A stretch of 32,000 nucleotides of DNA from Candidatus Kuenenia stuttgartensis (lineage in GTDB: Bacteria > Planctomycetota > Brocadiia > Brocadiales > Brocadiaceae): positions 4,350,001 through 4,382,000 of the forward strand of contig NZ_LT934425.1 of NCBI RefSeq assembly GCF_900232105.1, read 5' to 3'. This document shows, piece after piece, positions 2,759-18,340 of the stretch. Position 1 is the stretch's first letter. Each line of letters begins with the position of its first letter. The position numbers and the translations under genes are program-made. The notes under the pieces were generated by a model that was not told the DNA's origin, did no database searches, and was given only the letters and a program-made list of their open reading frames with translations.

Positions 2759-2941
2759 TCAGTTTTCCTGTCTATCCTCATCCTGTTCAACAAATATTTT
2801 AACTACGCGTCCGTTTTCGTAATAAACCAGTGGAGTATGCGTCTGTTTGGCTATTTCCCTTGCTCTTTTTGCCGCTCTTAGCAATGCAGCTTCTACATTC
2901 TCAAGGTCTTTGTCATGAATCTGTCTCTTTTTTCCATTCAT
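2759..2941 (-). CDS. 60-aa protein coupled to the zeta-like ATPase (putative antitoxin or partner)
   Basis: Its start overlaps the upstream gene's stop by 4 nt (ATGA at 2941-2938). It is a small charged protein (..EAALLRAAKRAREIAKQTHTPLVYYENGRVVKI..) of the type often paired with COG4185/zeta-family ATPases. Confidence 0.6.
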   Translation of the reverse strand: MNGKKRQIHDKDLENVEAALLRAAKRAREIAKQTHTPLVYYENGRVVKIFVEQDEDRQEN

Positions 2942-3462
2942 CTCTTTTCTCCTTCTTCAAGCAGTTTTGGCGTTCTGCCTGAGTTGTCGTAAAGAATCCA
3001 GGTATCTACCAACTGCTTGTAAATGTGGTAAAAATTAAACCATCCCTTTCCAAACCGTCGTCTGATAATCTCTTCAGGCACATTATGGCCACCCTGCAAA
3101 ACCCTCCCTTTTACCCGTTCAATGGCAATCTTTACATCATGAAGACTCAGAAATATCAACTTTACCGTGTATCCCCTCTTTTGCCATTCGGGTATCATTT
3201 GTGCATATATTTTACCGCTAAGTGTTGTTTCAAAGGCAAAGCCATCATTACGAAGCAGGTGCGTTTTAATTTCTTCATACATCAGCCTGCCCGCACGGAA
3301 AGCTGCATGTTCAGGGAAAAAAGGAGAAAGCCCTGCAGCTATCAAATCAGCATTAACAAAGATGGGACAGCCCGCCTCATTCGGCAGAAACTCTTTGGCA
3401 AACGTGGTCTTTCCTGCCCCGTTAGGTCCGGCAATGATAACGATATTCTTTTTTTTTACCAT
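2938..3462 (-). CDS. Zeta-toxin-like / COG4185 P-loop ATPase (174 aa)
   Basis: A Walker A motif GPNGAGKTT lies near the N-terminus. Size and overall pattern are typical of the zeta toxin / AAA_33-type kinase family. Confidence 0.75.
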   Translation of the reverse strand: MVKKKNIVIIAGPNGAGKTTFAKEFLPNEAGCPIFVNADLIAAGLSPFFPEHAAFRAGRLMYEEIKTHLLRNDGFAFETTLSGKIYAQMIPEWQKRGYTVKLIFLSLHDVKIAIERVKGRVLQGGHNVPEEIIRRRFGKGWFNFYHIYKQLVDTWILYDNSGRTPKLLEEGEKR

Positions 3463-6019: not shown

Positions 6020-6819
6020 CTTTGTGCCCGTTTAGGTTCTCCATAGCACTTTTCCATCCCCTGCCACATCAAACCGTACGTGAGGCTTCGTCGTGAGCTC
6101 AGCCGAACGGTTTTCCCTCATACGGCTTCCCTGCTCCCTTCTCAGCAAGGCATTATACACCTATCGATATGGAGCAGCTTTCGGGTAGATATATCCCCTT
6201 ACTCCACCGCTTCCAGCCGAAACCACTCAGTGCTTGTCAGTCTTCGCCTTGATGTATATCTTCCTCCTCAGTTCCTGCAGACTTATAGAAGCATTTGTCA
6301 TTCTTCCCTGCCTCACCGCTAAAGAAAGATTTAGAATACAGCAGATCCCCTTCGCTCCGGCAAGGTTATGCTGTCCTTGCCATCTCCACTACTACGGGCT
6401 CATCCGCCACCCTCTTGCCTGTCAGTCTACTTCGCCCTTCGACTTATAAGGCTTACATTCGCTCCTGATATTTCTATCAGGGACAAGGAGGGTTTCCCCA
6501 GTTGATACTGCTCCCTTCTATCCGTGTCGCCGCTGATACCCCGCCACCGTTCTTTTACCTATTAGCCAGTTTAGGTGCGTGAATTCCGCCTTCGCCTACT
6601 ATTGACAGGCTCGGCCAGTGGTTCCTGACTTTCACGAGGCTACCTCTACGTTCACGTACGTTACAACCCGGATATTCGCTCGCCGGCCTTACGCCGACTT
6701 TGTAGATGGGCTTCAGAAGGCAACGTTTCCATCACCCCCTGCCATCCAAGCTACATGGCTCCGGCTTTTACCACAACGGGACTTTCACCCGTTAGAAAAC
6801 AGTACCCTTCCCTGGGCAC
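6020..6819 (-). ncRNA. Group II intron-like ribozyme RNA without a reverse-transcriptase ORF (3' boundary unresolved)
   Basis: The minus strand starts GTGCCCAGGGAAGG at 6819. It contains GNRA-capped helices typical of domains I-III (GGGTGAAAGTCCCG, GGGGAAACCC, GGCGTAAGGCC). A domain V-like hairpin at 6128-6071 has arms AAGCCGTATGAGG / CCTCACGTACGGTTT, matching the consensus lower stem, AGC triad and AC bulge. The ORF track shows no minus-strand ORF of 60 aa or more in this span. Confidence 0.65.
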
Positions 6820-6883: not shown

Positions 6884-7474
6884 TTATACATTTTCTAAAT
6901 TTTTTAATGCATCTTCTATTGAAACTTTTGCACTCTCTGCGTGTTTTTTAATTTCTTCGTAATAGGTATCCGCCTTACCTGTGCCTGAGTTTGAAAGTGC
7001 AAATTGTGCCTGACTATTTACCTTGTTTATATTTACATACGCCAGACAAATGGCATCAAACTTAGTTTTATCAATCTTAACTATTTCATATTTAAAACTA
7101 TCCCACAAACTATTAGATAGTTGAATATAGAAAATACTACGATTGTCACCAGAAGTAATCTTTACTTCCTTTGTATCCTCACAATAAGCATCTAATATGG
7201 ATTTATTCTCTTTTAATTCTGTTTTTATTGCAGATATACTATTTTGAAATGTTTTTTCTTGTTCAGCTTTACTCTCTAATTTGATGGAATAATAAATAGC
7301 TACCAATGTAATGCCACCGCCAATTAAAGCACTAATAATTGGTATTATGATGTTTTTAGACCAGTTCCATAAATCATATTTACCTGAGTATATATATGAA
7401 AGATATGATAAAAAACCTAAAATTAAAAGCGCGAAAATGGAAATTATTATGCATACTTTAGGTATATTTTTCAT
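6884..7474 (-). CDS. Membrane protein, 2 TM helices plus ~125-aa soluble C-terminal domain, function unknown (196 aa from MKNIPKV)
   Basis: Hydrophobic stretches VCIIISIFALLILGFLSYLSYIY and IIIPIISALIGGGITLVAIYYSI. The longer tracked ORF (to 7738) is in-frame read-through of a transposase remnant. The gene is AT-rich. Confidence 0.6.
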   Translation of the reverse strand: MKNIPKVCIIISIFALLILGFLSYLSYIYSGKYDLWNWSKNIIIPIISALIGGGITLVAIYYSIKLESKAEQEKTFQNSISAIKTELKENKSILDAYCEDTKEVKITSGDNRSIFYIQLSNSLWDSFKYEIVKIDKTKFDAICLAYVNINKVNSQAQFALSNSGTGKADTYYEEIKKHAESAKVSIEDALKNLENV

Positions 7475-7738
7475 AATATGAACGGCTTGTGCCATGGCCT
7501 CCAGAGAGTTTCTTTTATAGTTTTTAAACATTGCGTAGACGACAAGGAGAAACATTGCAAATTGTTTTTTAGTAAAACATGATGCAAAATGTTCAAGAAA
7601 TTTATTTAATAACGATATGTTTGTTCTGAAAATACTCAAATCCTTTGCTCCGGCAATTGATTGTGTAAGAAATTTACAAGTGCAATTAATACCGGAAGTA
7701 AAGGCTAAAATCAAAAGTAAATATTTGTCGCAAAGCAT
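7475..7738 (-). pseudogene. Possible N-terminal remnant of an IS701/DDE_5-type transposase, fused in frame to the membrane-protein ORF
   Basis: LNKFLEHFASCFTKKQFAMFLLVVYAMFKNYKRNSLEAMAQAV resembles the F..F...F...Q...F...V.......R.S...MA N-terminal pattern of that transposase group. Recognition is weak and by eye only. Confidence 0.3.
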
Positions 7739-7937: not shown

Positions 7938-8061
7938 CTGCTTTCAGTCGATTAAAATATACCCTTCCTGATTAAATATTTCAAGCCTTCCCTTATTTTT
8001 CTTGACAGCCTATCTCATGAGTGAAATAATCACTTACCCCACCAAACTAAGATAATTATTT

Positions 8062-10629
8062 ATGGAGGATAAAGCACATAATAATGAACTTTTTAACGAA
8101 AATCTTTCATGTAATCACAATATTATGACAAATAAGATTATAGGGCAGGTAGAAAATGCCTTTATAAAAATAGGCTATAGCAAAAATCTGATACAGAAGG
8201 ATTATAAATACGTTGATTTATTTTCCTCATGTACGCCTATTCGTACGGTAAATTATGCGCTATTTGGCCAGGAACCTTTTGATTACCGTTCTGCCTGCTT
8301 TGGTATCCAAATAGCAGCACCCAATCGTTCTACAGATGATGTAGCAAATGAATTAAAATCGCTTGGAGCGCCTCAGATTTTTATCATTAACAACGGCAAA
8401 ACTGAACGATGGGCTATAACGGAAAGTGAACCTCTTCTTAAAGATAAGTATGAAACTGCCTGCCTGCCTAATGTCATTGCACAAAACTTGAGAGACTGGG
8501 AACCCCAAGCTATCATACGGGCAAAATCGGGATTTGCCCGACCGGGGCCCCGTCAGTTAGATTTTGTTGATATCGGATTACTTCCTGCCATAGACTACAA
8601 AGCTTCTCAAAAAATAGACCACTTGCTTCGGGCTGTACTTAATTATGCTGAAGAAGACTTTCATGAACGAGATTTACTATTTGATGCACCTGCGGTTTTT
8701 CAAGTTGTCTTTAGTCTTTTGGCTGCAAAAGTACTCAAAGATCGCAATATCTGCAATGCGAAAGGGATTGATTTTTCTATTCCACAAACGGCATTGCAGG
8801 CAATATATGAACATTACGGTTTTTCTTTAACTACACCGGCTTCAAAAATTCCAGAACTAACTCTTGAGTCAATATCACAAAAAATTGGGAAGATTTTCCC
8901 GCTGAATAATATATCAGTAGATACTCTTACATACATTTATGAAAATACATTTGTCTCTCAAAAAAGCCGTCAAGAACTTGGAATTCATAGTACCCCATCT
9001 TATGTTGCTGATTACATTCTTTCGCAAATTCCGATAGAGGATTTACAAAGAGAACAGTGGCACGTCACAGATCCTATGTGTGGGCATGGTATTTTTCTTA
9101 TTGCAGCAATGAGAAGAATGAAAAGCCTATTGCCAGGAGATTGGGACAGTAAACAACGGCATACATTTTTCATTAAACATTTACATGGAATAGAGATTGA
9201 CCCATTTTCCGTTGAAGTAGCCCGTATGTGCCTCATGTTAGCTGATTTTCCCGAATCAAATAGCTGGGATTTACAAAGACAAGATATATTTGCCGATAAT
9301 ATCCTCGAAAATAGTATGGCGAAAACTATGATACTTGTAGGCAACCCACCTTTTGAAAACATCAAGGGCAAAAGACCTGAAACCCCAAAACCAGCTGAGC
9401 TTTTACACAGAACGCTTCCGATTTTACCAAACAATGCATTAATTGGTTTGGTTTTACCACGTAGTTTTTTAGATGGTTCTGACTATAAAAACGAACGAAC
9501 TGCCTTGCTCAGTAACTTTAAAATAATTTCCGTTACGTGTCTTCCTGACCGTGTCTTTTTATATTCTGATATGGAAACTACAGTTATTGTTGCCAGAAAA
9601 CAGCAGGCACGAAAAAACTGGAATATGTTGTATAGAGAAGTTAGGGACAGCGAACGAGATGACTTTCAGATTCGACATGGTGTTACATGGGAAGACAATG
9701 TTCCACAATCTTACCTCAAAGACAAAATGCAAGGGCGTCTTGTTGTGCCATTGTTGCGTGAAATTTGGGAACGATTAGAAGGATATACACGTTTTGGTGA
9801 AATAGTTGATATAAGCATAGGCGTTCAATATAAACCAAATTTAGGAAAAGAAAGGTTATGTGAAATAATCCGTGATGTGCCTTTTCCTGGTTCAAAACCA
9901 GGCATTTCAAAAGTCACAAAAGGATTCATGCAATTCATTGCTGAAGATACAGTTTATATGTCGACAGACAAACAATATCGAAGATTTGAAACATCTACAG
10001 CTTGGGAACTACCGTGGGACAAACCAAAGGTTATAGTTCCTGCTTCGCGCATGTCCAGGGGACCGTGGCGATATGCAGCCGCATTAGACAAAAACGGTTG
10101 CATTGTAAGCCGAAGATTTTATAGCATTTGGCCAAAATCTAAAACCTTTGATGTTGCTATGTTAGCGACATTGCTGAATTCTCCAATTGCAGTAGCATTC
10201 ATTTATGCCCATAGCTTTCAAAAGGATATTCCAAAAAGAGTATACACCGATATACCTATTCCCGAAATATCCATTGATACTAAACAAATTATTGATTATC
10301 TCGTGAATCATTATTTAAAAGTGTTAAGGAAAGATGAGACAGAAGCCAAGAAAACATTACTTCAGATAGACGCTGAGATACTAAAACTATATAAACTTCC
10401 TCCACGATTGGAACGTCAACTTTTAGATATTTTTTGGGGTCACCAACGCCCTGTACCCTTTGAATTTAAAGGCTACATCTCCCCAGAAATCAATGCATGG
10501 ATTCCTCTTCATATTTACATATCAGAGCAATTTAATAATGCAACACCTGATAAAATTATGGAAAGAATTCCACTTATCCGTGATACTGAGTTTATAAATT
10601 ATCTTAAAAAACTGGGAACAGAAGAATAA
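8062..10629 (+). CDS. N6-adenine DNA methyltransferase-like protein, gamma class, with TaqI/Eco57I-type C-terminal region and an unassigned ~285-aa N-terminal domain (855 aa; possible type IIG-like enzyme)
   Basis: Motif order is X-I-IV: YENTF..RQELGIHSTPSYVADYI; VTDPMCGHGIFLIAA (nt 9070 onward); LHGIEIDPFSVEVARMCL; ILVGNPPFENI (NPPF at nt 9343-9354). The C-terminal half has FGEIVDISIGVQ and ..IDAEILKLYKLP.. features of specificity domains. Confidence 0.8.
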   Translation: MEDKAHNNELFNENLSCNHNIMTNKIIGQVENAFIKIGYSKNLIQKDYKYVDLFSSCTPIRTVNYALFGQEPFDYRSACFGIQIAAPNRSTDDVANELKSLGAPQIFIINNGKTERWAITESEPLLKDKYETACLPNVIAQNLRDWEPQAIIRAKSGFARPGPRQLDFVDIGLLPAIDYKASQKIDHLLRAVLNYAEEDFHERDLLFDAPAVFQVVFSLLAAKVLKDRNICNAKGIDFSIPQTALQAIYEHYGFSLTTPASKIPELTLESISQKIGKIFPLNNISVDTLTYIYENTFVSQKSRQELGIHSTPSYVADYILSQIPIEDLQREQWHVTDPMCGHGIFLIAAMRRMKSLLPGDWDSKQRHTFFIKHLHGIEIDPFSVEVARMCLMLADFPESNSWDLQRQDIFADNILENSMAKTMILVGNPPFENIKGKRPETPKPAELLHRTLPILPNNALIGLVLPRSFLDGSDYKNERTALLSNFKIISVTCLPDRVFLYSDMETTVIVARKQQARKNWNMLYREVRDSERDDFQIRHGVTWEDNVPQSYLKDKMQGRLVVPLLREIWERLEGYTRFGEIVDISIGVQYKPNLGKERLCEIIRDVPFPGSKPGISKVTKGFMQFIAEDTVYMSTDKQYRRFETSTAWELPWDKPKVIVPASRMSRGPWRYAAALDKNGCIVSRRFYSIWPKSKTFDVAMLATLLNSPIAVAFIYAHSFQKDIPKRVYTDIPIPEISIDTKQIIDYLVNHYLKVLRKDETEAKKTLLQIDAEILKLYKLPPRLERQLLDIFWGHQRPVPFEFKGYISPEINAWIPLHIYISEQFNNATPDKIMERIPLIRDTEFINYLKKLGTEE

Positions 10630-11160
10630 GTGAAACAGGATTACTATCTTCTTGATACAAATATTCTTGGATATCTTGCTGAATTAAAAGTAGGCGGAAA
10701 TAGTCCTGAATGCAAAGCCTTAGAAAAACATTGGAATGGATTACCGCAACCACATAATACAAGAATTTTTTTATGTCCCATAACCATTGGCGAGGTCGAA
10801 TATGGGCTTCGTGTCAGGTCTTATAATAGACCGGAACAGCATGAGCAAGCGCGTCAAATATTATCTTCATTTCCTGCTTTTGACATAAATATCAATATAG
10901 CACGTGACTGCTATGCCGACCTGCGTGCAAAACTCTTCGATAAATATGCCCCAAGAGATCGAAAAGGAAAAAGTTGTAAAAAGAGGATAAGAGAATGGCG
11001 TGATCCTACTACTGATAAGGAATTGCAAATGGATGAGAATGATCTTTGGATTGCTGCTGTAGCAATGGCGCACAATCTTGTGCTTGTGACCCACGATAAA
11101 ATGAATGCAATAAAAAGCATAACAAGTTCGGATTTACGATTTGAAGATTGGCTAACGTAA
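10630..11160 (+). CDS. PIN-domain (VapC-like) nuclease, 176 aa, GTG start directly after the upstream stop
   Basis: PIN acidic positions occur in YLLDTNIL, IGEVEYG, ENDLWIAAVA and LVTHD. The GTG at 10630 follows the TAA at 10627-10629 with no spacer. Confidence 0.75.
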   Translation: MKQDYYLLDTNILGYLAELKVGGNSPECKALEKHWNGLPQPHNTRIFLCPITIGEVEYGLRVRSYNRPEQHEQARQILSSFPAFDININIARDCYADLRAKLFDKYAPRDRKGKSCKKRIREWRDPTTDKELQMDENDLWIAAVAMAHNLVLVTHDKMNAIKSITSSDLRFEDWLT

Positions 11161-11337: not shown

Positions 11338-12894
11338 TCATGCCGCCATTTCCGTAAGTGCTTTAATATCAAGGGCTGAAGCGGTCATCAGTGAACAAGA
11401 GAACTTCTGGCCTTTCTCCGTCAAAACATAGCGGTTGGCCCTCGGAACTTTGCGGATTAGACCGTGTGCCCGCAGCATCTTTATCCGTCGGGTCGTTCGT
11501 CCGGAATATTTCTTTTGCTGATCCTTGCCGGATTGTTCGGATTCCCGGTAAAGCCACTTACGCAAATCATGGTTGCGGAATCCATTTATCGCGTTTTCGC
11601 CTTTGGACAGGAACATCAGCATCTGGTAATCATCCTGCTGCCAGGGATTCAAACCTCGATACCTCTTGCCCTCTTTGACAACCTTGTTACAAGCGCTGCT
11701 CACCACTTCTTTCAGTTTCTCCTCTACCTGAGCCGCCGCCAAAGCATCCCCATAACGATCATTGCATTGTTGGCTCACCTCACACCGTCGATGAAGATCG
11801 CTTACGCCCTTACGCATCTTCTGCCATGACGCCGGTTTGCCTTCATCATCATTGGGACTCCGAAAGACCTTAAAGTCCCGCGTATTATTGATCGTTGTCT
11901 CAATACGCAAGAGACTACCGCTCTTGTTATACATCTTCACTGAATTATAATTCACACTGTGCTTGACCCGTATACCTTCATAGCGTCTTCGATAGTCGCT
12001 GATAACCTCATCAGGGGCAGCGCCTGCAAGGTTACGCCTACCCAAATACTTCATCACCGAAGAACTGTCGCAAACCCGCATCGCATGATGAACAAACGAT
12101 GGAAACAACTCCTCCAATGCCTCAACCGATTTAAACATGATGTCCGTCGCCCACTCCGTCTCATCCGCAGACCAGTAATACTCCGGTTCCAACGGACGAA
12201 GAATCTGCGACAATGCCGGGCAACTGCCCAACGCAAGCCCGTTCAGCAGCTTCGCCCAGTCAGTCTTAAGCTGCTCATGGAGCAGAACCTGCGCAGCCGC
12301 AATATCCTCTATACGCACAAAACAGTTGCCGTCCTTAACATAATCAATACCTTGCTTCTGAAGTTGCCGCTCCAGCCAATGACGACCATTGAGACAAATG
12401 AAAATATTAAACGGCGCCCAACTCTGGATACGAACATGACCAAAACCAAACACTGGATCGTTAAAATAATGATACACAAAGACACACTTGCGGGGCGCCA
12501 TTACCAACTCGAGCTTCTTGCTGGCCTTGTTGCCCTTGACCATCGGCGCAATACAAGGCTCTACCACACTCAACAGGCAGATGGAACCTTCCGTAATCCT
12601 CTTATCCGCCGCGATCTGGCGAGCCAACTTCTCCTTATCAACACCGCTGCTCATCAAATACCGCACCTCGATACCCAAATCTTTCGCCCGCGATTCACAA
12701 CTGTCTCGCACCTGTGCCGTAAGCCCATTGACCCAACCGGAAAAATCCTTAAGCAGAATTCTCGCTTGGTTCATGAATGTTCCCATCCCACGCTCACTGG
12801 CCAACCACCGCAATGTCCCGCGAAAACGAATCCTGTCCAGACCGCTTATTGCACCCACGATCCTGTCTCGATATAATTCCATCAACTTATTCAT
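11338..12894 (-). CDS. Conserved-looking protein of unknown function, 518 aa, with a C-terminal winged-helix-like segment
   Basis: A long ORF with visibly higher GC than both flanks. The C-terminus RRIKMLRAHGLIRKVPRANRYVLTEKGQKF looks like a wHTH. I cannot assign a family. Confidence 0.6.
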   Translation of the reverse strand: MNKLMELYRDRIVGAISGLDRIRFRGTLRWLASERGMGTFMNQARILLKDFSGWVNGLTAQVRDSCESRAKDLGIEVRYLMSSGVDKEKLARQIAADKRITEGSICLLSVVEPCIAPMVKGNKASKKLELVMAPRKCVFVYHYFNDPVFGFGHVRIQSWAPFNIFICLNGRHWLERQLQKQGIDYVKDGNCFVRIEDIAAAQVLLHEQLKTDWAKLLNGLALGSCPALSQILRPLEPEYYWSADETEWATDIMFKSVEALEELFPSFVHHAMRVCDSSSVMKYLGRRNLAGAAPDEVISDYRRRYEGIRVKHSVNYNSVKMYNKSGSLLRIETTINNTRDFKVFRSPNDDEGKPASWQKMRKGVSDLHRRCEVSQQCNDRYGDALAAAQVEEKLKEVVSSACNKVVKEGKRYRGLNPWQQDDYQMLMFLSKGENAINGFRNHDLRKWLYRESEQSGKDQQKKYSGRTTRRIKMLRAHGLIRKVPRANRYVLTEKGQKFSCSLMTASALDIKALTEMAA

Positions 12895-12994: not shown

Positions 12995-15006
12995 CTAGCG
13001 TGAGTTTATCACGAAATAAGGTGTAAGACAAAGACATCAAGTTGCAATCCAATGATTTGTATCGGGTTGCGACTTTTTTTGTCTAAAAAATTATGTATAC
13101 ACTGAATAATACTATATTTATATTGCATTATATGCCTGTATATACTATTATACACGGAGTATTAATCTATTACGTATACACTAACAACTAATAGCCATGG
13201 CTACCATTCAATCTAAAAACTCCAGAGGTTATAAATATTGGTATATTGTCGAATCGCGGCGCGTTAACGGCAAGCCCAGGCCCATCGTCCTGGCCTATCT
13301 TGGCAAGGCAGACGATTTATTAAAACAACTGCAAGGTCTTACCGAAAAATTACGGCTCAAATCTTATTCACATGGCGCGGTAGCCGCATTGCTAAGTGTG
13401 GCCAATGCCCTGGACGTCCCTTCCGTGATTAATAAATATATAAAGTCGCCACGGCAGTATTGTGCTAAAAAACCTGTTCGAAATAATCTGACCGCCGGAA
13501 GTACCCTCTTGTTGGGTGCCGTGGGGAGAGTGTGTGTGCCTACCAGCAAAAGAGGATGGTGGGATTGGGCAAAGACGACTACTGCCGAATACTTACTCAG
13601 ACACAGCTTGAGTAAAATAGACAGTCAGCATTTCTGGGATTTGATGGATGCACTTCCTGAAGAATCCATTGCAGAAATCGAGCGCGAATTAATTGAAAAG
13701 ACATTTAAAACATACAACCTTCAAAGCGACACACTGTTTTTTGATACAACCAATTTTTTCACGTATATCGACACAACTAATCTGCGATGCACTATTGCCC
13801 GGCGGGGGAAAAACAAACAAAAGCGATACGATCTCAGGCAGGTCGGGTTGGCGATGGTCGTTACACGTAACGACATGATACCGTTGTTTCACCATACCTA
13901 TCAGGGGAACATGGCGGATGCAAAGGTGTTCAGCGCGGTTCTTGAGACGATAAAAGACAGGATGACCGGATTAGGTTTCGACAGCAAAAAGCACACTATT
14001 GTTTTTGATCGTGGAAACAATTCCATGGACAATATGGCTATTGTAGAGAGATTGGCATTGCATTACGTTGGAGCGCTTACACCGTATCATCACAAGCAGT
14101 TGGTAGGGGATGCCATGTGTAATTTCAGGGAATATGACGTTGACGGCAGTAAGATACAGGTGTACCATGACAAACGGGTTATTTGGGGGCAGGAAAGAAC
14201 CGTTGTCGTATTTATTTCCGAGAAATTAAAGGTTGGGCAATTAAGGGGAATGTCTCAGTCTCTGGAAAAGGCAGAACATCAGTTAAAGCTCTTACAGCAG
14301 CATCTGTGTAATCCAAAGGGAAAGATGCGGGACAAAGAGGGTCTGGAGGATACGATAAGAAGTGTAGTGAAATGTCAATTTGCGAAGGATGTTATCGATT
14401 GGTCGTTAAAAGAGGTATCTGAAGGCAAGTTTCAATTGAATTTTTCAATCGACCAGAAAAAGCTCGAAGAAATAGAAGGGGAACTGGGGTTCAGGATTCT
14501 TATGACAGACCATCACGATTGGGATACCGCGGACATTATAAAAGCCTACTATGGGCAATCAAAAATTGAACATGCCTTTAGAAATCTCAAGAACCCCTAT
14601 CACCTTGCTTTAAAACCGCAATTTCACTGGACGGATCAGAAAATCAGGGTGCATTTTTTTATTTGCGTCCTCGGATACCTAATGGCGGCGATTGTGTGGT
14701 ATCAGGCAAAAGCGCACGCACAATTTAGTGGAACGTTAGATACCCTGTTAGACACCCTTAATAATATAAGGCTTTCTGCTATGCTTGAAGAAACAAAGGC
14801 CAGAGGGAGAGTTAAGGCTACCTACAAATTGGAAGAAATGTCCGACAAGGAATCTCTGTTGATGAATGCGTTAGGCATTATGGATTTCCACAAACATCGG
14901 CTGAAACTTCAAGGACTCAGTGTATACAATTGATGTTGTGCTTAACGCATTGACTGTATTTATGTTACGTTGCTTCATGCCTTATTTTGTGATAAACTCA
15001 CGCTAG
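12995..15006 (+). mobile_element. Second, different IS1634-family insertion sequence
   Basis: 27-nt terminal IRs: CTAGCGTGAGTTTATCACGAAATAAGG (12995-13021) against the reverse complement of 14980-15006, with 1 mismatch by eye. There is a single transposase ORF. I could not recognise a TSD. Confidence 0.8.
13197..14933 (+). CDS. IS1634-family DDE transposase (578 aa)
   Basis: The N-terminus IQSKNSRGYKYWYIVESRRVNGKPRPIVLAYLG and the overall architecture are typical of IS1634/IS4-group transposases. The ORF is enclosed by IRs. Confidence 0.85.
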   Translation: MATIQSKNSRGYKYWYIVESRRVNGKPRPIVLAYLGKADDLLKQLQGLTEKLRLKSYSHGAVAALLSVANALDVPSVINKYIKSPRQYCAKKPVRNNLTAGSTLLLGAVGRVCVPTSKRGWWDWAKTTTAEYLLRHSLSKIDSQHFWDLMDALPEESIAEIERELIEKTFKTYNLQSDTLFFDTTNFFTYIDTTNLRCTIARRGKNKQKRYDLRQVGLAMVVTRNDMIPLFHHTYQGNMADAKVFSAVLETIKDRMTGLGFDSKKHTIVFDRGNNSMDNMAIVERLALHYVGALTPYHHKQLVGDAMCNFREYDVDGSKIQVYHDKRVIWGQERTVVVFISEKLKVGQLRGMSQSLEKAEHQLKLLQQHLCNPKGKMRDKEGLEDTIRSVVKCQFAKDVIDWSLKEVSEGKFQLNFSIDQKKLEEIEGELGFRILMTDHHDWDTADIIKAYYGQSKIEHAFRNLKNPYHLALKPQFHWTDQKIRVHFFICVLGYLMAAIVWYQAKAHAQFSGTLDTLLDTLNNIRLSAMLEETKARGRVKATYKLEEMSDKESLLMNALGIMDFHKHRLKLQGLSVYN

Positions 15007-15156: not shown

Positions 15157-16718
15157 TCATCCTTTCGCAAACGCCTCCCGTAAAACCGACTGCATCAGCA
15201 TTTCGGACTGTTCTTTGCGTTCGGATACTTGTTTTTCTAATTCACCAATCATGGCCATGAGTTTATCCACACGTTCAACAATGGCTTGTTGTTCAGCAAG
15301 TGGCGATAGAGAAACTATCAAATTTGAAAGAGATGTGCCATTAACATTTGGCTGTCCCGCGCCCCATGCCGCATCATACAACTGCTCCCAATATTCAGGA
15401 CTTTCAAGAAAATACTTTAGATACTCAGGGAAAATATTTTTTGAAGGAATAACCCTAATCAAATACGAAGCAAACAAAGACCTGACAGGGATATCTTTGA
15501 TAAGAAATGATTTCCCAATTGTGCCGCCTGTTCTCGCGATAACAATATCGTTTTCTGATAATATAGTCAAATAAATCTATTTTTCTAAAAACATTACAGG
15601 TAGGGGCGAAGCATTTGCCTGCATATAAGAGAGAGACGTAAAATGTTGTACATGCGCCAACTCCGCTATGTTGAAGGAGTTATACTGTACGCAGGCAAAT
15701 GCTTCGCCCCCACTTTTCAAAAAGCCAGATTACCGCTAAGTTTCTAAAACCAGATTTGTTTGACTATAGATAACTTTTTATGTCTCTTTCCGAATACGCA
15801 CAACCCGGTACTCCGTCCCAATCAACTCTGTTGTTTTGAATATCCGTTATCCTTAAAAGCCTCACGTCCTTCTTCTCCGGTCTTGCGGAAGCATTAAATC
15901 CATAGTGAACATTTAAGCTTACATCCTTCAGCCGACACCCACACCCACCCCTCAGGCAGGTCAAACGGTTTTTCTTCTTCACTGATGGGCGGCAGTGCTT
16001 TTTTCTTCTTCATGCTCTTTGTGAGCTTTGTTAGACGCCCTTTTTCGACCTTAATCTTCTCAAGCAGTTTCGAGGCGTGATTCTCTCCGCTGATAAGATC
16101 GGGATGCTGTTTGCGCCATTTAGCCGTCAGCTTGCCTTCGATTGCTTCCTGTAATATTCTTCGGCGGAGTTGTTTGATGAGAGAGATTTGGTGGGCTGAT
16201 TCTAAGTCTTGATCTGCTGAAAGTTCTGATATTGTTTTCAGTTTTTGGCAAATTCTACTTTGTGTCAGAATACCATATTGTGGAATTTTAAAATTTAAAA
16301 AATCCTTTTCTTTAAATCTTTTTCGGCTAACACTCGACATGCCACCACTAAGATTATTTATAGCTGTAATATTTTCGGGCAAAAGTATGCCACTAAGAAG
16401 GAATTCAGGAAGCAATTTACTCTCAACACAAGTAAAAAGTGGAAATTCATTTGATACCAGACAGCCATCAAATTCATCTGGAATAACTGCAAAAGAACTT
16501 TTCCATGCAAAAAGACGATTGTAGATAAAATCTCTCTGTTTAACTTCATATAGCTTAGTTGCTTTTATTTCATTTCCATATTTTTCCTCTCGCAGAAAAA
16601 CACCTTTTCCATACCACTTTACTCCAAGAAGCCTGTATTTTGTATTTGGATCCAGTCTTTTCTCTCGTGAGACCTCTTTTAAAACGTCTCCAATCCTTAC
16701 CATATTCCACTCACCCAT
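15157..16718 (-). pseudogene. hsdS: Type I restriction-modification specificity subunit HsdS, disrupted by a 1-nt frameshift (~15935) and a MITE insertion (15564-15766)
   Basis: Three consecutive ORF pieces cover it: 16718..15894, 15982..15764 and 15570..15157. HsdS hallmarks include MGEWNMVRIGDV.., the central coiled coil ..LIKQLRRRILQEAIEGKL.., LPEGWVWV(R)LKDV.., ..NDIVIARTGGTIGKS.., ..PLAEQQAIVERVDKLM.. and ..SVLREAFAKG*. The start overlaps the rhuM stop (ATGGGTGA). Confidence 0.85.
15564..15766. mobile_element. 203-bp MITE with TA target-site duplication, inserted in hsdS
   Basis: Terminal IRs are TAGTCAAATAAATC (15564-) and GATTTGTTTGACTA (-15766). TA lies at 15562-15563 and 15767-15768. 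There is an internal 23-nt IR: GTAGGGGCGAAGCATTTGCCTGC (15600-15622) paired with 15691-15712. Deleting the element plus one TA gives ..DIKSYLLSENDIVIARTGG.., in frame. Confidence 0.8.
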
Positions 16719-17739
16719 CTTCCCGCCTCTTTTTCTTCTGGATGCGTTTAGTTGCTTTCTGCTCAATCGCTTTTGTCGCACGATCAAAATCAGAAATATA
16801 GTCTTTGTCTCGGTCTTTTTTGTACTTTTTAAATTCGCTTTCAGCCTTTTCAATTGCCTGCTCAGCGCTCACTTTACCGGCATGGGTAAGGAGTTCGTGT
16901 TCACTCAGTTTCAAAAACTGGTCAAGTTTCTCTATCCAGTCATTCATCTTCATCAGCCTGCCGTTGGTTGCCTGCAATTCTGCAAAGTCAAGATACAAAG
17001 ACACGATAAGATTTAAGCGTTTTAACTCATCTTCATTGAGATAGTTTTTTGCAATCTTTATATCCTGTGCGGTAATGTAATTCCCTTTAAAATTGGTTAG
17101 ACCCATAAGGGGTTTTGTGCTGTCTGCCCGCCTGTCGATAATCTCCGCCGCGGTGTGGCCATGAACAGCATAGTGCATCTTGTTTTGTACAGTAGCAAAA
17201 AATTCCGCAGTCAGTTTGTCATCTTTTCTATAATCAATGCTGGTGGCATAAATATCGGTTACTTTCTGATAAAAGTTTCGCTCGCTGCTACGAATATCGC
17301 GAATGCGCTGTAAAAGTTCCTGAAAATATCGCGCCTTTTCACCACCTTGTTTTAATCGTTCATCATCCAGAGCAAAACCTTTAATAATGTATTCTTTCAG
17401 CCGCTGTGTGGCCCAAATACGAAATTGTGTTCCTCGTCGCGACTTAACCCGGTATCCAACCGAAATAATGACATCAAGATTATAATGCTTCACAACATAT
17501 TCTTTACCGTCTGTGCCAGTTCGTCGGAATTCCCGACATACTGATTTTTCATCAAGTTCCCCTTCATTAAAAACATTATGTATATGTTCAGTAATGGTTG
17601 ACCGGCCTTTAGCAAAGAGTTCTGCCATCTGATCTTGTGTAAGCCAGACTGTTTCATCCTCCATTTTTACCTGAATCTTTGTCTGTCCGTCTTCGGTCTG
17701 ATAAATAATAAGCTGGGATTTATTTTGTGCGTTATCCAT
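16711..17739 (-). CDS. rhuM: RhuM-family protein (Fic/DOC-related; commonly embedded in type I RM loci), 342 aa
   Basis: IIYQTEDGQTKIQVKMEDETVWLTQDQMAELF..TITEHI.NVF..GEL..SVCREFR.T..DGK.Y.VKHYNLD.IISVGYRVKS..GTQFRIWAT is the RhuM signature. The ORF is intact and overlaps both neighbours by 8 nt. Confidence 0.85.
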   Translation of the reverse strand: MDNAQNKSQLIIYQTEDGQTKIQVKMEDETVWLTQDQMAELFAKGRSTITEHIHNVFNEGELDEKSVCREFRRTGTDGKEYVVKHYNLDVIISVGYRVKSRRGTQFRIWATQRLKEYIIKGFALDDERLKQGGEKARYFQELLQRIRDIRSSERNFYQKVTDIYATSIDYRKDDKLTAEFFATVQNKMHYAVHGHTAAEIIDRRADSTKPLMGLTNFKGNYITAQDIKIAKNYLNEDELKRLNLIVSLYLDFAELQATNGRLMKMNDWIEKLDQFLKLSEHELLTHAGKVSAEQAIEKAESEFKKYKKDRDKDYISDFDRATKAIEQKATKRIQKKKRREDG

Positions 17740-18340
17740 TCTCCAACTCCTTTCTTAATTGTTGAAGAAGCTCGTCGCTTTTACGAAATGATTCATGTAG
17801 CATCGTTACCAGTTCCGCACTTGAATACACGTGTTTTTCCTCTAAAATATGCGGATTTTTAATGTCGAGGTTATAGTCATTCGCAGCAATCGTATCTATA
17901 GATACCTTCCATGCCTGCTCATTTTCTTTGTGTTTCTTCCACCACTTCTTAAGCCCATCAAACTCGCTTTTCTGAATCGGCTTCGTCTTGCTGTATGTCT
18001 TAATACCTTCGGGCAGTTTATGTTCCCAATACCAGATTTCTAGAGACTGAGCCCGCTCGTTTAACACCGAAACATCCACTCCGGCCACATATATTTTCTG
18101 CCTGGAGTCGGATACTATTTCACCGCCTTGTATGATTGCCGGTTGTGTGGGATATTCAGCCGTTATTTCTTCTTCAAAATCCACAGGCTGGCCGGTTTCA
18201 GGGTCAATGACATCCTGGTCTTCTTCGGGATGAATATCCTGATCCGTTAATTCTTTTTCGCCTTTAACCTCTCTGATCATGACGGGGTAGCCGTCAAAAG
18301 CGGGGTCAGCGAAAAGGTCTGTCACATTGCGGAAGTCCAT
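17732..18340 (-). pseudogene. Chimeric remnant: internal fragment of an EcoAI/EcoEI-type HsdR fused to the C-terminal ~100 aa of HsdM
   Basis: The N-terminal part (open from ~18385) reads (INEEYGKTYFAI)MDFRNVTDLFADPAFDGYPV..acidic..KIYVAGVDVSV, an HsdR-like F.I.DF....F.DP.FDG.P block. The C-terminal part reads EIWYWEHKLPEGIKTYSKTKPI...EQAWKVSIDTIAANDYNLDIKNPH, the HsdM tail. No MTase catalytic motifs are present. Confidence 0.6.

Follow-up and report, generated by a model that had tools for sequence, protein, structure and literature searches.

The gene pair and its setting

The window (the whole stretch of Candidatus Kuenenia stuttgartensis DNA that was analysed, 32,000 nt) contains two abutting genes on the forward strand, encoding a methyltransferase (MTase)-like protein and a PIN nuclease. 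The features discussed below are as follows.

6656-6794, reverse strand: group II intron fragment in the flank of the pair
8002-8030, forward strand: promoter-like site TTGACA-17 nt-(TG)AATAAT, ~30 nt 5′ of the MTase ATG; a consensus match only, at 11 of 12 positions
8062-10629, forward strand: MTase-like gene, 855 aa, ATG start; KSMBR1_4040 in strain MBR1
8134-8454, forward strand: restriction-endonuclease (REase)-like domain, aa 25-131, predicted from an AF2 model and Foldseek
8455-8916, forward strand: helical connector, aa 132-285, holding the most conserved N-terminal cluster
8917-9651, forward strand: gamma-class N6-adenine MTase domain, aa 286-530, with motifs X, I and IV
9652-10356, forward strand: TaqI/CamA-like target-recognition region (TRD), aa 531-765, from weak Pfam TaqI_C and structural matches
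10357-10479, forward strand: conserved C-terminal block, aa 766-806, IDAEILKLYxLPPRLERQLLDxFWGxxRPVPFxFxGY, common to all partner types
10480-10626, forward strand: PIN-type tail, aa 807-855 (...WIPLHIYIS...), a proposed partner-docking module
10630-11160, forward strand: PIN nuclease gene, 176 aa, GTG start abutting the TAA; KSMBR1_4041
10939-11034, forward strand: clade-specific basic insert of the PIN protein, aa ~104-135

Both open reading frames lie exactly where an earlier note on this sequence had placed them, and the zero spacer that it described is correct; the junction reads GAA GAA TAA GTG, with both genes in the same frame. By consensus matching the PIN gene has no comparable promoter-like site immediately 5′ of it, in keeping with a single MTase–PIN operon. 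The first 21 residues of the MTase protein are a low-confidence extension present only in Brocadiaceae, and translation may instead begin at M22 (nt 8125). In RefSeq the two genes are annotated generically, as 'N-6 DNA methylase' and 'PIN domain-containing protein', and in MBR1 the MTase gene is annotated 'putative type I restriction enzyme M protein'.

The surrounding DNA is AT-rich as had been described, with a GC fraction of 0.31-0.39 across 7-11 kb compared with 0.45-0.49 in the flanks. The flanks contain DDE transposases and the group II intron fragment, and type I RM debris and RhuM lie downstream of the pair, confirming the bracketing by IS elements, an intron and RM debris. In a comparison of strain MBR1 with KUST the pair is listed as present in MBR1 only. 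The PIN had been described as lacking an antitoxin, and neither an antitoxin gene nor a repeat RNA was found. There is no VapB-like ORF at the locus, and related loci have no room for one, the gap between the MTase gene and its partner being -11 to +18 nt. Tandem repeats resembling an RNA antitoxin (type III TA-like repeat RNA) are absent.

Architecture of the two proteins

Starting at the N-terminus of the MTase protein, aa 1-285 have no family match in Pfam, NCBIfam or PADLOC, in agreement with the earlier observation that residues 1 to ~285 match nothing, and a profile of this region compared with PDB sequences gave noise only. Structure prediction was more informative. With the window fragment aligned with full-length database homologues as input, AF2 generated a domain of alpha-beta-beta-beta-alpha-beta-beta-beta topology (pLDDT 90), for which Foldseek matched the nuclease domains of DrdV (the best), 9y1l, 6okh, HsdR and BsaXI. 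The D...(D/E)xK triad that had not been seen by eye is also missing from the family; across 65 members strands beta2 and beta3 carry no conserved acidic residue or lysine, and the only conserved residues in the sheet are D52, R61 and R76. The chain then enters the helical connector, where R153, K155, Q165, D167, D170, E178, K184 and D186 form the conserved cluster. The N-terminus thus models confidently as a dead REase-like nuclease domain plus helical connector in a type IIG/IIL layout, and D52, R61 and R76, or the connector cluster, may provide a non-canonical active site. The earlier note had envisaged a standard PD-(D/E)xK nuclease making this an ordinary type IIG enzyme. The fold found by structure prediction and Foldseek is indeed REase-like, but with the catalytic residues absent from the expected strands the protein is not an ordinary self-sufficient enzyme of that type. 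The N-terminal domain is found only in this MTase architecture (443 clusters, with full-length members of 820-940 aa).

The MTase domain follows, with the motif order X-I-IV of the gamma class and the motif positions as previously given. Motif X (GIHSTPSYV, aa 307-315), motif I (DPMCGHG, with D337 of DPMCGHGIFL beginning at nt 9070) and motif IV (NPPF, N428-F431, nt 9343-9354) are all invariant in the family, motif I in the form DPxCGxG. Pfam assigns N6_Mtase to aa 286-524 (1.5e-12) and also matches MmeI_Mtase (1.1e-9), with Eco57I just under its cut-off. PADLOC reports a generic MTase domain only, with partial PglX and mad2 matches. The proposal of a TaqI-type C-terminal half is supported by structural matches of the MTase and TRD core to CamA and M.BseCI (E~1e-20), the Pfam TaqI_C match (aa 649-719, E=1e-3) being weak and under the cut-off. 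In Foldseek the whole chain aligns over 900+ columns with BpuSI, DrdV and PglX. From its sequence the subunit is an active-looking SAM-dependent N6-adenine MTase. The published MBR1 methylome contains five asymmetric m6A motifs compared with at least seven candidate MTases, and KSMBR1_4040 was left out of the RM tables of that paper. The TRD varies slightly more than the remainder of the protein, which counts against fast specificity switching, since that predicts more variability. Beyond the conserved C-terminal block the chain terminates in the PIN-type tail, which is predicted to be ordered (pLDDT 75-93). This tail has no Pfam match, and those that replace it in homologues (see below) match nothing in Pfam, NCBIfam or PADLOC.

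The PIN protein matches PF01850 (8e-12). The acidic positions that had been picked out by eye correspond to a quartet, D9, E55, D138 and D156, that is invariant in 51/51 PIN partner proteins. The basic insert (~30 aa) is likewise real and no local oddity, as its length and character are kept across the same 51 proteins. By sequence the protein is VapC-like, with best matches to VapC (NCBIfam VapC, and the PDB VapC entries 6nkl and 3zvk); the NCBIfam VapC models score far under their cut-off, at 38 compared with 140 bits. PADLOC has no match for it.

Conserved linkage and exchange of the nuclease

The linkage of the two genes was examined from both sides. The forward set comprises 79 MTase-seeded genome loci (29-95% identity) from more than nine phyla, including Planctomycetota, Nitrospirota, Desulfobacterota, Chloroflexota, Verrucomicrobiota, Bacteroidota, Patescibacteria and Gemmatimonadota, together with Alphaproteobacteria and others. 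Downstream DNA is available for 74 loci, and all 74 have a small nuclease gene or its remnant on the same strand 3′ of the MTase gene, within the gap of -11 to +18 nt. Reciprocally, the MTase gene lies directly upstream in 74/74 testable PIN-seeded metagenome loci, and a PIN of this clade was never seen there without it. The divergence of MTase and PIN is correlated (r=0.92). The prediction that the genes would be adjacent in unrelated genomes is therefore borne out, and the linkage is near-absolute, essentially obligate in both directions and far beyond chance. One locus (L004) has an intact MTase gene and a decayed PIN gene. Clustering of all ORFs within 4 kb gave no third conserved gene, only lineage-specific extras, comprising a 68-100-aa upstream ORF and a second MTase in Dehalococcoidia, and an upstream ORF of ~163 aa in Alphaproteobacteria.

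The partner is not always a PIN. PIN is the commonest (about 52 loci, plus the decayed copy in L004), and is replaced in separate clades by HEPN (10), HNH (7) or metallo-beta-lactamase (MBL; 5) proteins, all partners falling between 130 and 340 aa. The HNH and MBL assignments exceed the Pfam cut-offs, and HEPN was confirmed by a profile match to solved HEPN structures (E=1.9e-4). The MTase tail past aa ~806 co-varies strictly with the type of partner, the HEPN-, HNH- and MBL-linked homologues having unrelated tails in place of the PIN-type tail, and this argues for physical coupling of MTase and nuclease. As judged from these sequences, several exchanges of the nuclease have occurred during evolution. 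One locus (L014) was considered as a clean recent PIN-to-HEPN swap and rejected, because a sliding comparison showed a mosaic, similar to the HEPN clade at both ends and to the PIN clade in the middle.

The expectation that the pair would be enriched near defence genes was not borne out. The 115 nearest-neighbour positions are mostly occupied by housekeeping genes, with ~5 RM-like or McrB-like genes and no clear defence-island enrichment, and the pair was not found on phages in IMG/VR or INPHARED. It also occurs on Rhizobiaceae plasmids, including those of cultured Agrobacterium and Sinorhizobium, beside a Shedu gene, transposases or integrases. The pair is accessory and mobile in character, and may have a role in defence.

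Relation to known systems and proposed function

The closest architecture is that of the type IIG/IIL enzymes (MmeI, DrdV and BpuSI), which have the same order of N-terminal REase fold, helical connector, gamma N6-adenine MTase and TRD. The present MTase differs in lacking the conserved D...(D/E)xK triad, in having an obligatory separate nuclease gene and an additional partner-specific C-terminal tail, and in its size, 855 aa being smaller than the matched chains (870-1016 residues). Type III RM systems (Mod and Res) are likewise adjacent co-transcribed genes, in which a MTase with TRD would provide a separate nuclease with target recognition, but here the partner has a PIN, HEPN, HNH or MBL fold in place of an SF2 helicase/ATPase, and no conserved helicase lies near the pair. 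PrrC-EcoprrI and Ronin share the tight linkage of an RM-type MTase module to a potentially toxic effector with no classical antitoxin, and Ronin has likewise lost the restriction nuclease function of its RM part. Both are built on type I HsdM/HsdS, where a single type IIG/IIL-like chain is found here, and they act through an ABC-ATPase-HEPN anticodon nuclease or a 61-aa membrane peptide, whereas the effectors of the present family are small soluble nucleases. With VapBC the pair shares the PIN fold with its four invariant acidic residues, but VapB is replaced upstream by an 855-aa MTase, and the PIN has its clade-specific insert and occurs only beside that MTase. The MTase-TRD core is structurally similar to that of BREX PglX/BrxX, as the partial PADLOC match also indicates. 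PglX is a MTase without nuclease activity of its own that works only with partner proteins (PMC11341690); it lacks the REase-like N-terminal domain, and neither BrxC, PglZ, BrxL, other BREX genes nor MAD1-8 are present near the pair. None of the named systems considered (Ronin, PrrC, BREX-related, MADS, Hma, Ambrosia, and DS-3 and DS-5 of DefensePredictor) fits, and full-text searches of the open literature, outside REBASE and subscription journals, found no published description. The two-gene module is apparently widespread and undescribed.

The explanation that we favour, and to which we give about an even chance, is that the pair is an obligate two-subunit RM-like module that descends from a type IIG/IIL enzyme and has its nuclease outsourced, under the control of the MTase/TRD subunit. 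The large subunit would mark host DNA by methylation and read a specific DNA motif through its TRD, while its own REase-like domain would have lost the catalytic residues. Cleavage would pass to the product of the abutting gene, a small stand-alone nuclease, which would dock on the partner-specific tail, be held or positioned by the MTase subunit in a physical complex, and be unleashed once that subunit meets unmethylated (foreign) target sites. Self would thereby be distinguished from non-self by methylation, and the module would have an immune role. Most likely the effector is an RNase where it has a PIN or HEPN fold, and growth would be arrested or infection aborted; with HNH or MBL it is most likely a DNase, and restriction would be direct. 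That PIN and HEPN are RNase folds agrees poorly with DNA restriction. A more specific version, which we hold tentatively, is a class of methylation-guided immune system not recognised before, in which the dead-nuclease MTase/TRD sensor allosterically switches on an interchangeable effector through a cassette-like docking tail. In the commonest form the effector would be a VapC-like PIN RNase, so that unmethylated foreign DNA leads to cleavage of RNA, an RNA-targeting restriction.

The earlier note had offered two readings, the nuclease arm of a split RM-like system or a guard effector restrained by the MTase, and the data are compatible with both. The main alternative is a guard or decoy of the PrrC-EcoprrI/Ronin kind, which we consider unlikely though still worth weighing. 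The MTase would be a restriction-enzyme look-alike that sequesters a toxic nuclease, methylation being secondary, and phage anti-restriction factors that bind or disable it (DNA mimics such as Ocr/ArdA, SAM hydrolases or Stp-like peptides) would release the PIN to kill or arrest the cell. This is consistent with the death of the cis nuclease, as HsdR was lost in Ronin (bioRxiv 10.1101/2023.04.06.535777), with a tightly linked effector of invariant catalytic residues that lacks an antitoxin, and with the PIN never occurring without a MTase that can itself outlive PIN decay (L004). The structural relatives PglX/BrxX and the type I MTases are known Ocr targets (PMC11341690), and Anantharaman et al. 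2013 read HEPN-RM linkage as guard-type (PMC3710099). However, purifying selection has maintained motifs I and IV and the TRD in homologues from different phyla with as little as 29% identity, suggesting that methylation and sequence reading matter in themselves, and many loci have no adjacent companion RM or BREX for a decoy to back up. Should the PIN itself be the DNA-cleaving subunit brought to unmethylated sites by the MTase/TRD, the pair would be a strict split restriction enzyme with a new restriction-nuclease fold. HNH and MBL, both typical DNase folds, are found in the genomic slot and at the tail-docking position that the PIN takes up here, and the conserved basic insert of the PIN could be a means of binding duplex DNA. 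DNA 5′ nucleases are among the members of the PIN-like superfamily. In their survey of that superfamily Matelska et al. 2017 noted that PIN domains working as restriction modules, or together with them, were still to be demonstrated (PMC5499597). Yet the PIN resembles VapC in sequence, those VapC proteins that have been characterised cleave RNA, and the alternative partner HEPN is known only as an RNase fold; we regard a strict split enzyme as improbable.

A non-immune role in stabilising mobile DNA is given a small chance. Here the MTase would be a large proteinaceous antitoxin of the PIN toxin, or loss of methylation would trigger killing (RM selfishness). The presence of the pair in strain-variable, IS-, integrase- or plasmid-associated DNA, the lack of defence-island enrichment, the TA operon-like translational coupling and the asymmetric decay all agree with this. 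Against it, an antitoxin needs far less than an 855-aa enzyme whose domains for catalysis and DNA recognition are conserved, swapping of RNase- and DNase-fold effectors is typical of immune systems, and at many loci the neighbours are housekeeping genes, without an obvious mobile element. Lastly, an ordinary type IIG enzyme next to an unrelated orphan vapC, for which nothing speaks except the generic RefSeq and MBR1 annotations, has next to no probability. Chance adjacency is already refuted by the comparative data: the linkage in both the forward and the reciprocal set, the co-divergence of MTase and PIN, the co-variation of tail with partner and the missing catalytic triad.

The MTase–PIN pair permits a direct test of PIN nucleases as restriction modules, and the plasmid copies in Agrobacterium and Sinorhizobium make experiments possible beyond the uncultivable anammox host. 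The module is a natural experiment on possible signalling from a DNA-reading methyltransferase to an effector, a matter of relevance to BREX, PrrC and Ronin, and its partner-specific tail suggests a portable docking interface for recruiting effectors to such an enzyme. If it works as proposed, the module would add a compact two-gene family to the RM world, one whose cutting function has left the enzyme and can be supplied by any of four unrelated nuclease folds.

The gene pair and its surroundings in Kuenenia

Both ORFs are present exactly as first described, and the junction between them, said to have no spacer, reads GAA GAA TAA GTG. The principal features of the pair are as follows.

8002-8030: promoter-like site, near-consensus, by consensus match
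8062-10629 (+): 855-aa gamma-class N6-adenine methyltransferase-like protein (MTase)
8518-8619 region: conserved connector cluster, MTase aa 153-186
10630-11160 (+): 176-aa PIN nuclease

A comparable promoter-like site was not found before the PIN gene. In strain MBR1 the genes are named KSMBR1_4040 ('putative type I restriction enzyme M protein') and KSMBR1_4041 ('PIN domain protein'), and both are listed among the MBR1 genes missing from the 2006 KUST strain (PMC5854607 supplement). The 855-aa protein is identical in CP049055.1 and other Kuenenia assemblies. Its start codon is uncertain, because the position of M22 (nt 8125) is the start in most homologues. The first 21 codons (MEDKAHNNELFNENLSCNHNI; 8062-8124) occur in Brocadiaceae homologues only, and are predicted to be disordered (pLDDT < 50).

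The earlier note placed the pair in an AT-rich block bracketed by IS elements, an intron and restriction–modification (RM) debris. This holds: the GC fraction is 0.31-0.39 in the block vs 0.45-0.49 in the flanks, and DDE transposases, a group II intron fragment and type I RM debris lie around it. Positions marked with a dagger (†) were derived by offset from L082, a Kuenenia locus.

738-2420† (+): 560-aa ORF, no Pfam match
~2759-2941† (-): 60-aa ORF, following the 174-aa KSMBR1_4035
~2938-3462† (-): 174-aa protein KSMBR1_4035, weak Zeta_toxin match
6656-6794 (-): group II intron D1-D4 fragment, Rfam RF02003 (104 bits, E=1.4e-22)
6884-7738 (-): 284-aa ORF KSMBR1_4039 with hydrophobic segments, divergent from the MTase
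11338-12894 (-): 518-aa ORF, faint C-terminal wHTH match only
13197-14933: IS (DDE), inserted in this arrangement beside the type I RM debris
~15157-18325† (-): type I RM debris

The intron fragment sits inside a GC-rich stretch (~5.6-6.9 kb), in whose ORF list no intact intron-encoded protein is evident. KSMBR1_4039 lies in the most AT-rich part (GC ~31%), and Pfam, NCBIfam and PADLOC all gave no match for it. The ORF is unique to MBR1, with a metagenome variant (locus L085) that is 89% identical and carries an insertion; no homologue was found beside the pair outside K. stuttgartiensis. The 560-aa ORF recurs several times in the Kuenenia loci L080-L082, and it and the 518-aa ORF behave like uncharacterised repeated or mobile-element genes. 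KSMBR1_4035 is annotated 'Zeta toxin' and is MBR1-unique; with the 60-aa ORF it may form a small toxin–antitoxin pair in the same accessory region. The RM debris comprises a 137-aa Methylase_S fragment, a 342-aa RhuM-family protein and a ~200-aa N6_Mtase fragment.

Linkage of the MTase to its nuclease partners

The MTase-like protein belongs to a family of 820-940 aa that is conserved over the full length. A scan with one genome per species gave 79 MTase loci from many phyla at 29-95% identity. Adjacency in unrelated genomes was examined by tblastn with all-against-all clustering of neighbouring ORFs. In all 74 loci with downstream DNA a small same-strand gene follows the MTase, with a gap of -11 to +18 nt.

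Partner genes following the MTase
PIN: ~175 aa, about 52 loci
HEPN: ~145 aa, 10 loci
HNH: ~190 aa, 7 loci
Metallo-beta-lactamase (MBL): ~340 aa, 5 loci
Decayed PIN remnant: 1 locus, L004 of Ca. Scalindua rubra (12527-12659, last ~45 codons only; MTase homologue intact)

The HNH and MBL assignments exceed Pfam cut-offs, and the HEPN assignment is backed by a profile match to solved HEPN structures with the motifs SRAYYA and RNxxDY aligned. Reciprocally, the PIN clade served as seed for 80 metagenome loci (34-88% identity). Among the 74 whose upstream DNA spans 150 nt or more, 73 have the MTase directly upstream of PIN, and the sole flagged exception, L157, likewise has an overlapping MTase match. 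Pairwise divergences of MTase and PIN are correlated (r=0.92, 1,081 pairs), and chance adjacency is excluded. No third gene conserved across the whole family emerged from clustering of the neighbouring ORFs.

A C-terminal block, IDAEILKLYxLPPRLERQLLDxFxGxxRPVPFxFxGY (aa 766-806 in the window), is common to the whole family; beyond it the tail differs with the partner. The PIN-linked tail is ~50 aa ('...WIPLHIYIS...') and is predicted to be ordered in the full-length model (pLDDT 75-93); the HEPN-linked extension is ~110 aa ('...EQDPETxEKWLLIDITVDG...VRENIRLSY'), and MBL- and HNH-linked MTases carry other, unrelated tails. None of the tails matched a known domain. In a neighbour-joining tree built from the MTase minus its tail, without bootstrap values, PIN is the predominant partner, with HEPN in two clades, HNH in three and MBL in one. 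L014 (10001-12691) was ruled out as a recent partner swap, as its MTase is a mosaic: the first ~360 aa and the tail are HEPN-clade-like, while aa ~360-800, including the target-recognition domain (TRD), resemble the PIN-linked sisters. This shows recombination within the family, not simple effector exchange, and suggests shuffling of the TRD or of segments between sub-families.

No clear enrichment near defence genes was seen: nearest neighbours are heterogeneous and mostly housekeeping, and the RM-like or McrB-like ones among 115 sampled amount to two type I S subunits plus three AAA_5 proteins. Some copies of the pair lie within integrase or primase islands and others on Rhizobiaceae plasmids. 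On Agrobacterium tumefaciens pAtA74a_a the pair adjoins a Shedu SduA gene, a ResIII/DEAD helicase and a Mu transposase, and a Sinorhizobium copy is flanked by IS elements on both sides. Searches of viral contigs and phage genomes turned up no copy.

Two lineages have upstream ORFs of their own. In eight Dehalococcoidia/Chloroflexota loci (L034, L038, L040, L042, L043, L046, L048, L051) a conserved 68-100-aa ORF (...RKRRxISYP...PYWNRSLSDIGGM...; no Pfam match) lies directly upstream of the MTase, and in several of the eight PIN is followed by another Eco57I-like MTase, ~960 aa long and with NPPF (e.g. L040 13138-16026). In Alphaproteobacteria, a branch with an MTase tail type of its own, a conserved ~163-aa ORF overlaps the MTase start (L167 5498-5995, L059 5025-5513, L063 1177-1665); it belongs to no Pfam family and is 36% identical between an Agrobacterium plasmid and a Hyphomicrobium MAG (E=4e-21).

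Domain architecture of the two proteins

Domain scans place N6_Mtase, MmeI_Mtase and Eco57I matches across aa 286-524 of the MTase and a weak TaqI_C match at aa 649-719; aa 1-285, earlier left without a nameable family, gave none. The full-length model (pLDDT 85.5) matches CamA and M.BseCI in its MTase and TRD core, and aligns over >900 columns to BpuSI (type IIG), DrdV and PglX/BrxX. Motifs I and IV are invariant in the family.

The AlphaFold2 model of aa 1-292 (pLDDT 90.2, pTM 0.83) has an alpha-beta-beta-beta-alpha-beta-beta-beta core at aa ~25-131 and then a helical bundle. Its leading Foldseek matches in the PDB are DrdV, a type IIL enzyme (probability 0.96 over 274 aligned columns), 9y1l, a 'putative restriction endonuclease domain' protein (probability 1.0), 6okh, HsdR nuclease domains and BsaXI. 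These matches are consistent, though with weak E-values (4e-3 to 6e-2). The canonical D...(D/E)xK triad, which the earlier note could not find, is indeed absent, because, of the polar residues in the sheet, only D52, R61 and R76 are conserved among 65 family members, and strand beta3 (ACFGIQI) is uncharged. Conservation in the N-terminal half is strongest in the helical connector (aa 132-285) to the MTase domain, at R153, K155, Q165, D167, D170, E178, K184 and D186. Searched exhaustively with phmmer, aa 1-292 gave 443 clusters at 50% identity; in full-length members the domain is always the N-terminus of an MTase of the 820-940-aa size class.

The second protein is a PF01850 PIN domain whose closest solved relatives are VapC toxins. 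Its residues D9, E55, D138 and D156 show no variation among the partners (51/51), and the basic insert proves to be a hallmark of the PIN clade, at ~30 aa.

Proposed mode of action

The best-supported reading, with roughly an even chance of being correct, is a two-subunit RM-like module derived from type IIG/IIL enzymes. The MTase/TRD subunit would write and read methylation and, via its tail, would control an outsourced, interchangeable nuclease. A guard of the PrrC/Ronin type, released by anti-restriction factors, is unlikely. Long-term conservation of the TRD and of MTase catalysis favours a real role for methylation rather than a pure decoy. L004 is the only case of decay, and the converse, PIN without the MTase, was never observed; this asymmetry is compatible either with PIN depending on the MTase or with its being restrained by it. 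A non-immune addiction module is the least probable of the readings.

Slightly less improbable is that PIN is a true DNA restriction subunit. According to a survey of the superfamily, PIN nucleases had yet to be demonstrated as restriction modules, and the survey noted none beside type II RM genes (PMC5499597). The HEPN survey reports HEPN-RM linkages and the analogy to PrrC, and does not include the present family (PMC3710099), and recent papers on BREX-related systems, modularity networks, Ronin and DefensePredictor concern systems other than this pair. PADLOC (2023) does not recognise PIN and catches the large protein by generic MTase models only, and RefSeq gives both genes generic names. 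In line with the claim of an undescribed module, no description was found by full-text search of the literature outside REBASE and subscription journals. The pair is rated a putative RM-like or RM-linked effector system. PIN (VapC-like) and HEPN have RNase folds and HNH and MBL have DNase folds, so the outputs of the family probably include RNA targeting (abortive) as well as DNA targeting.
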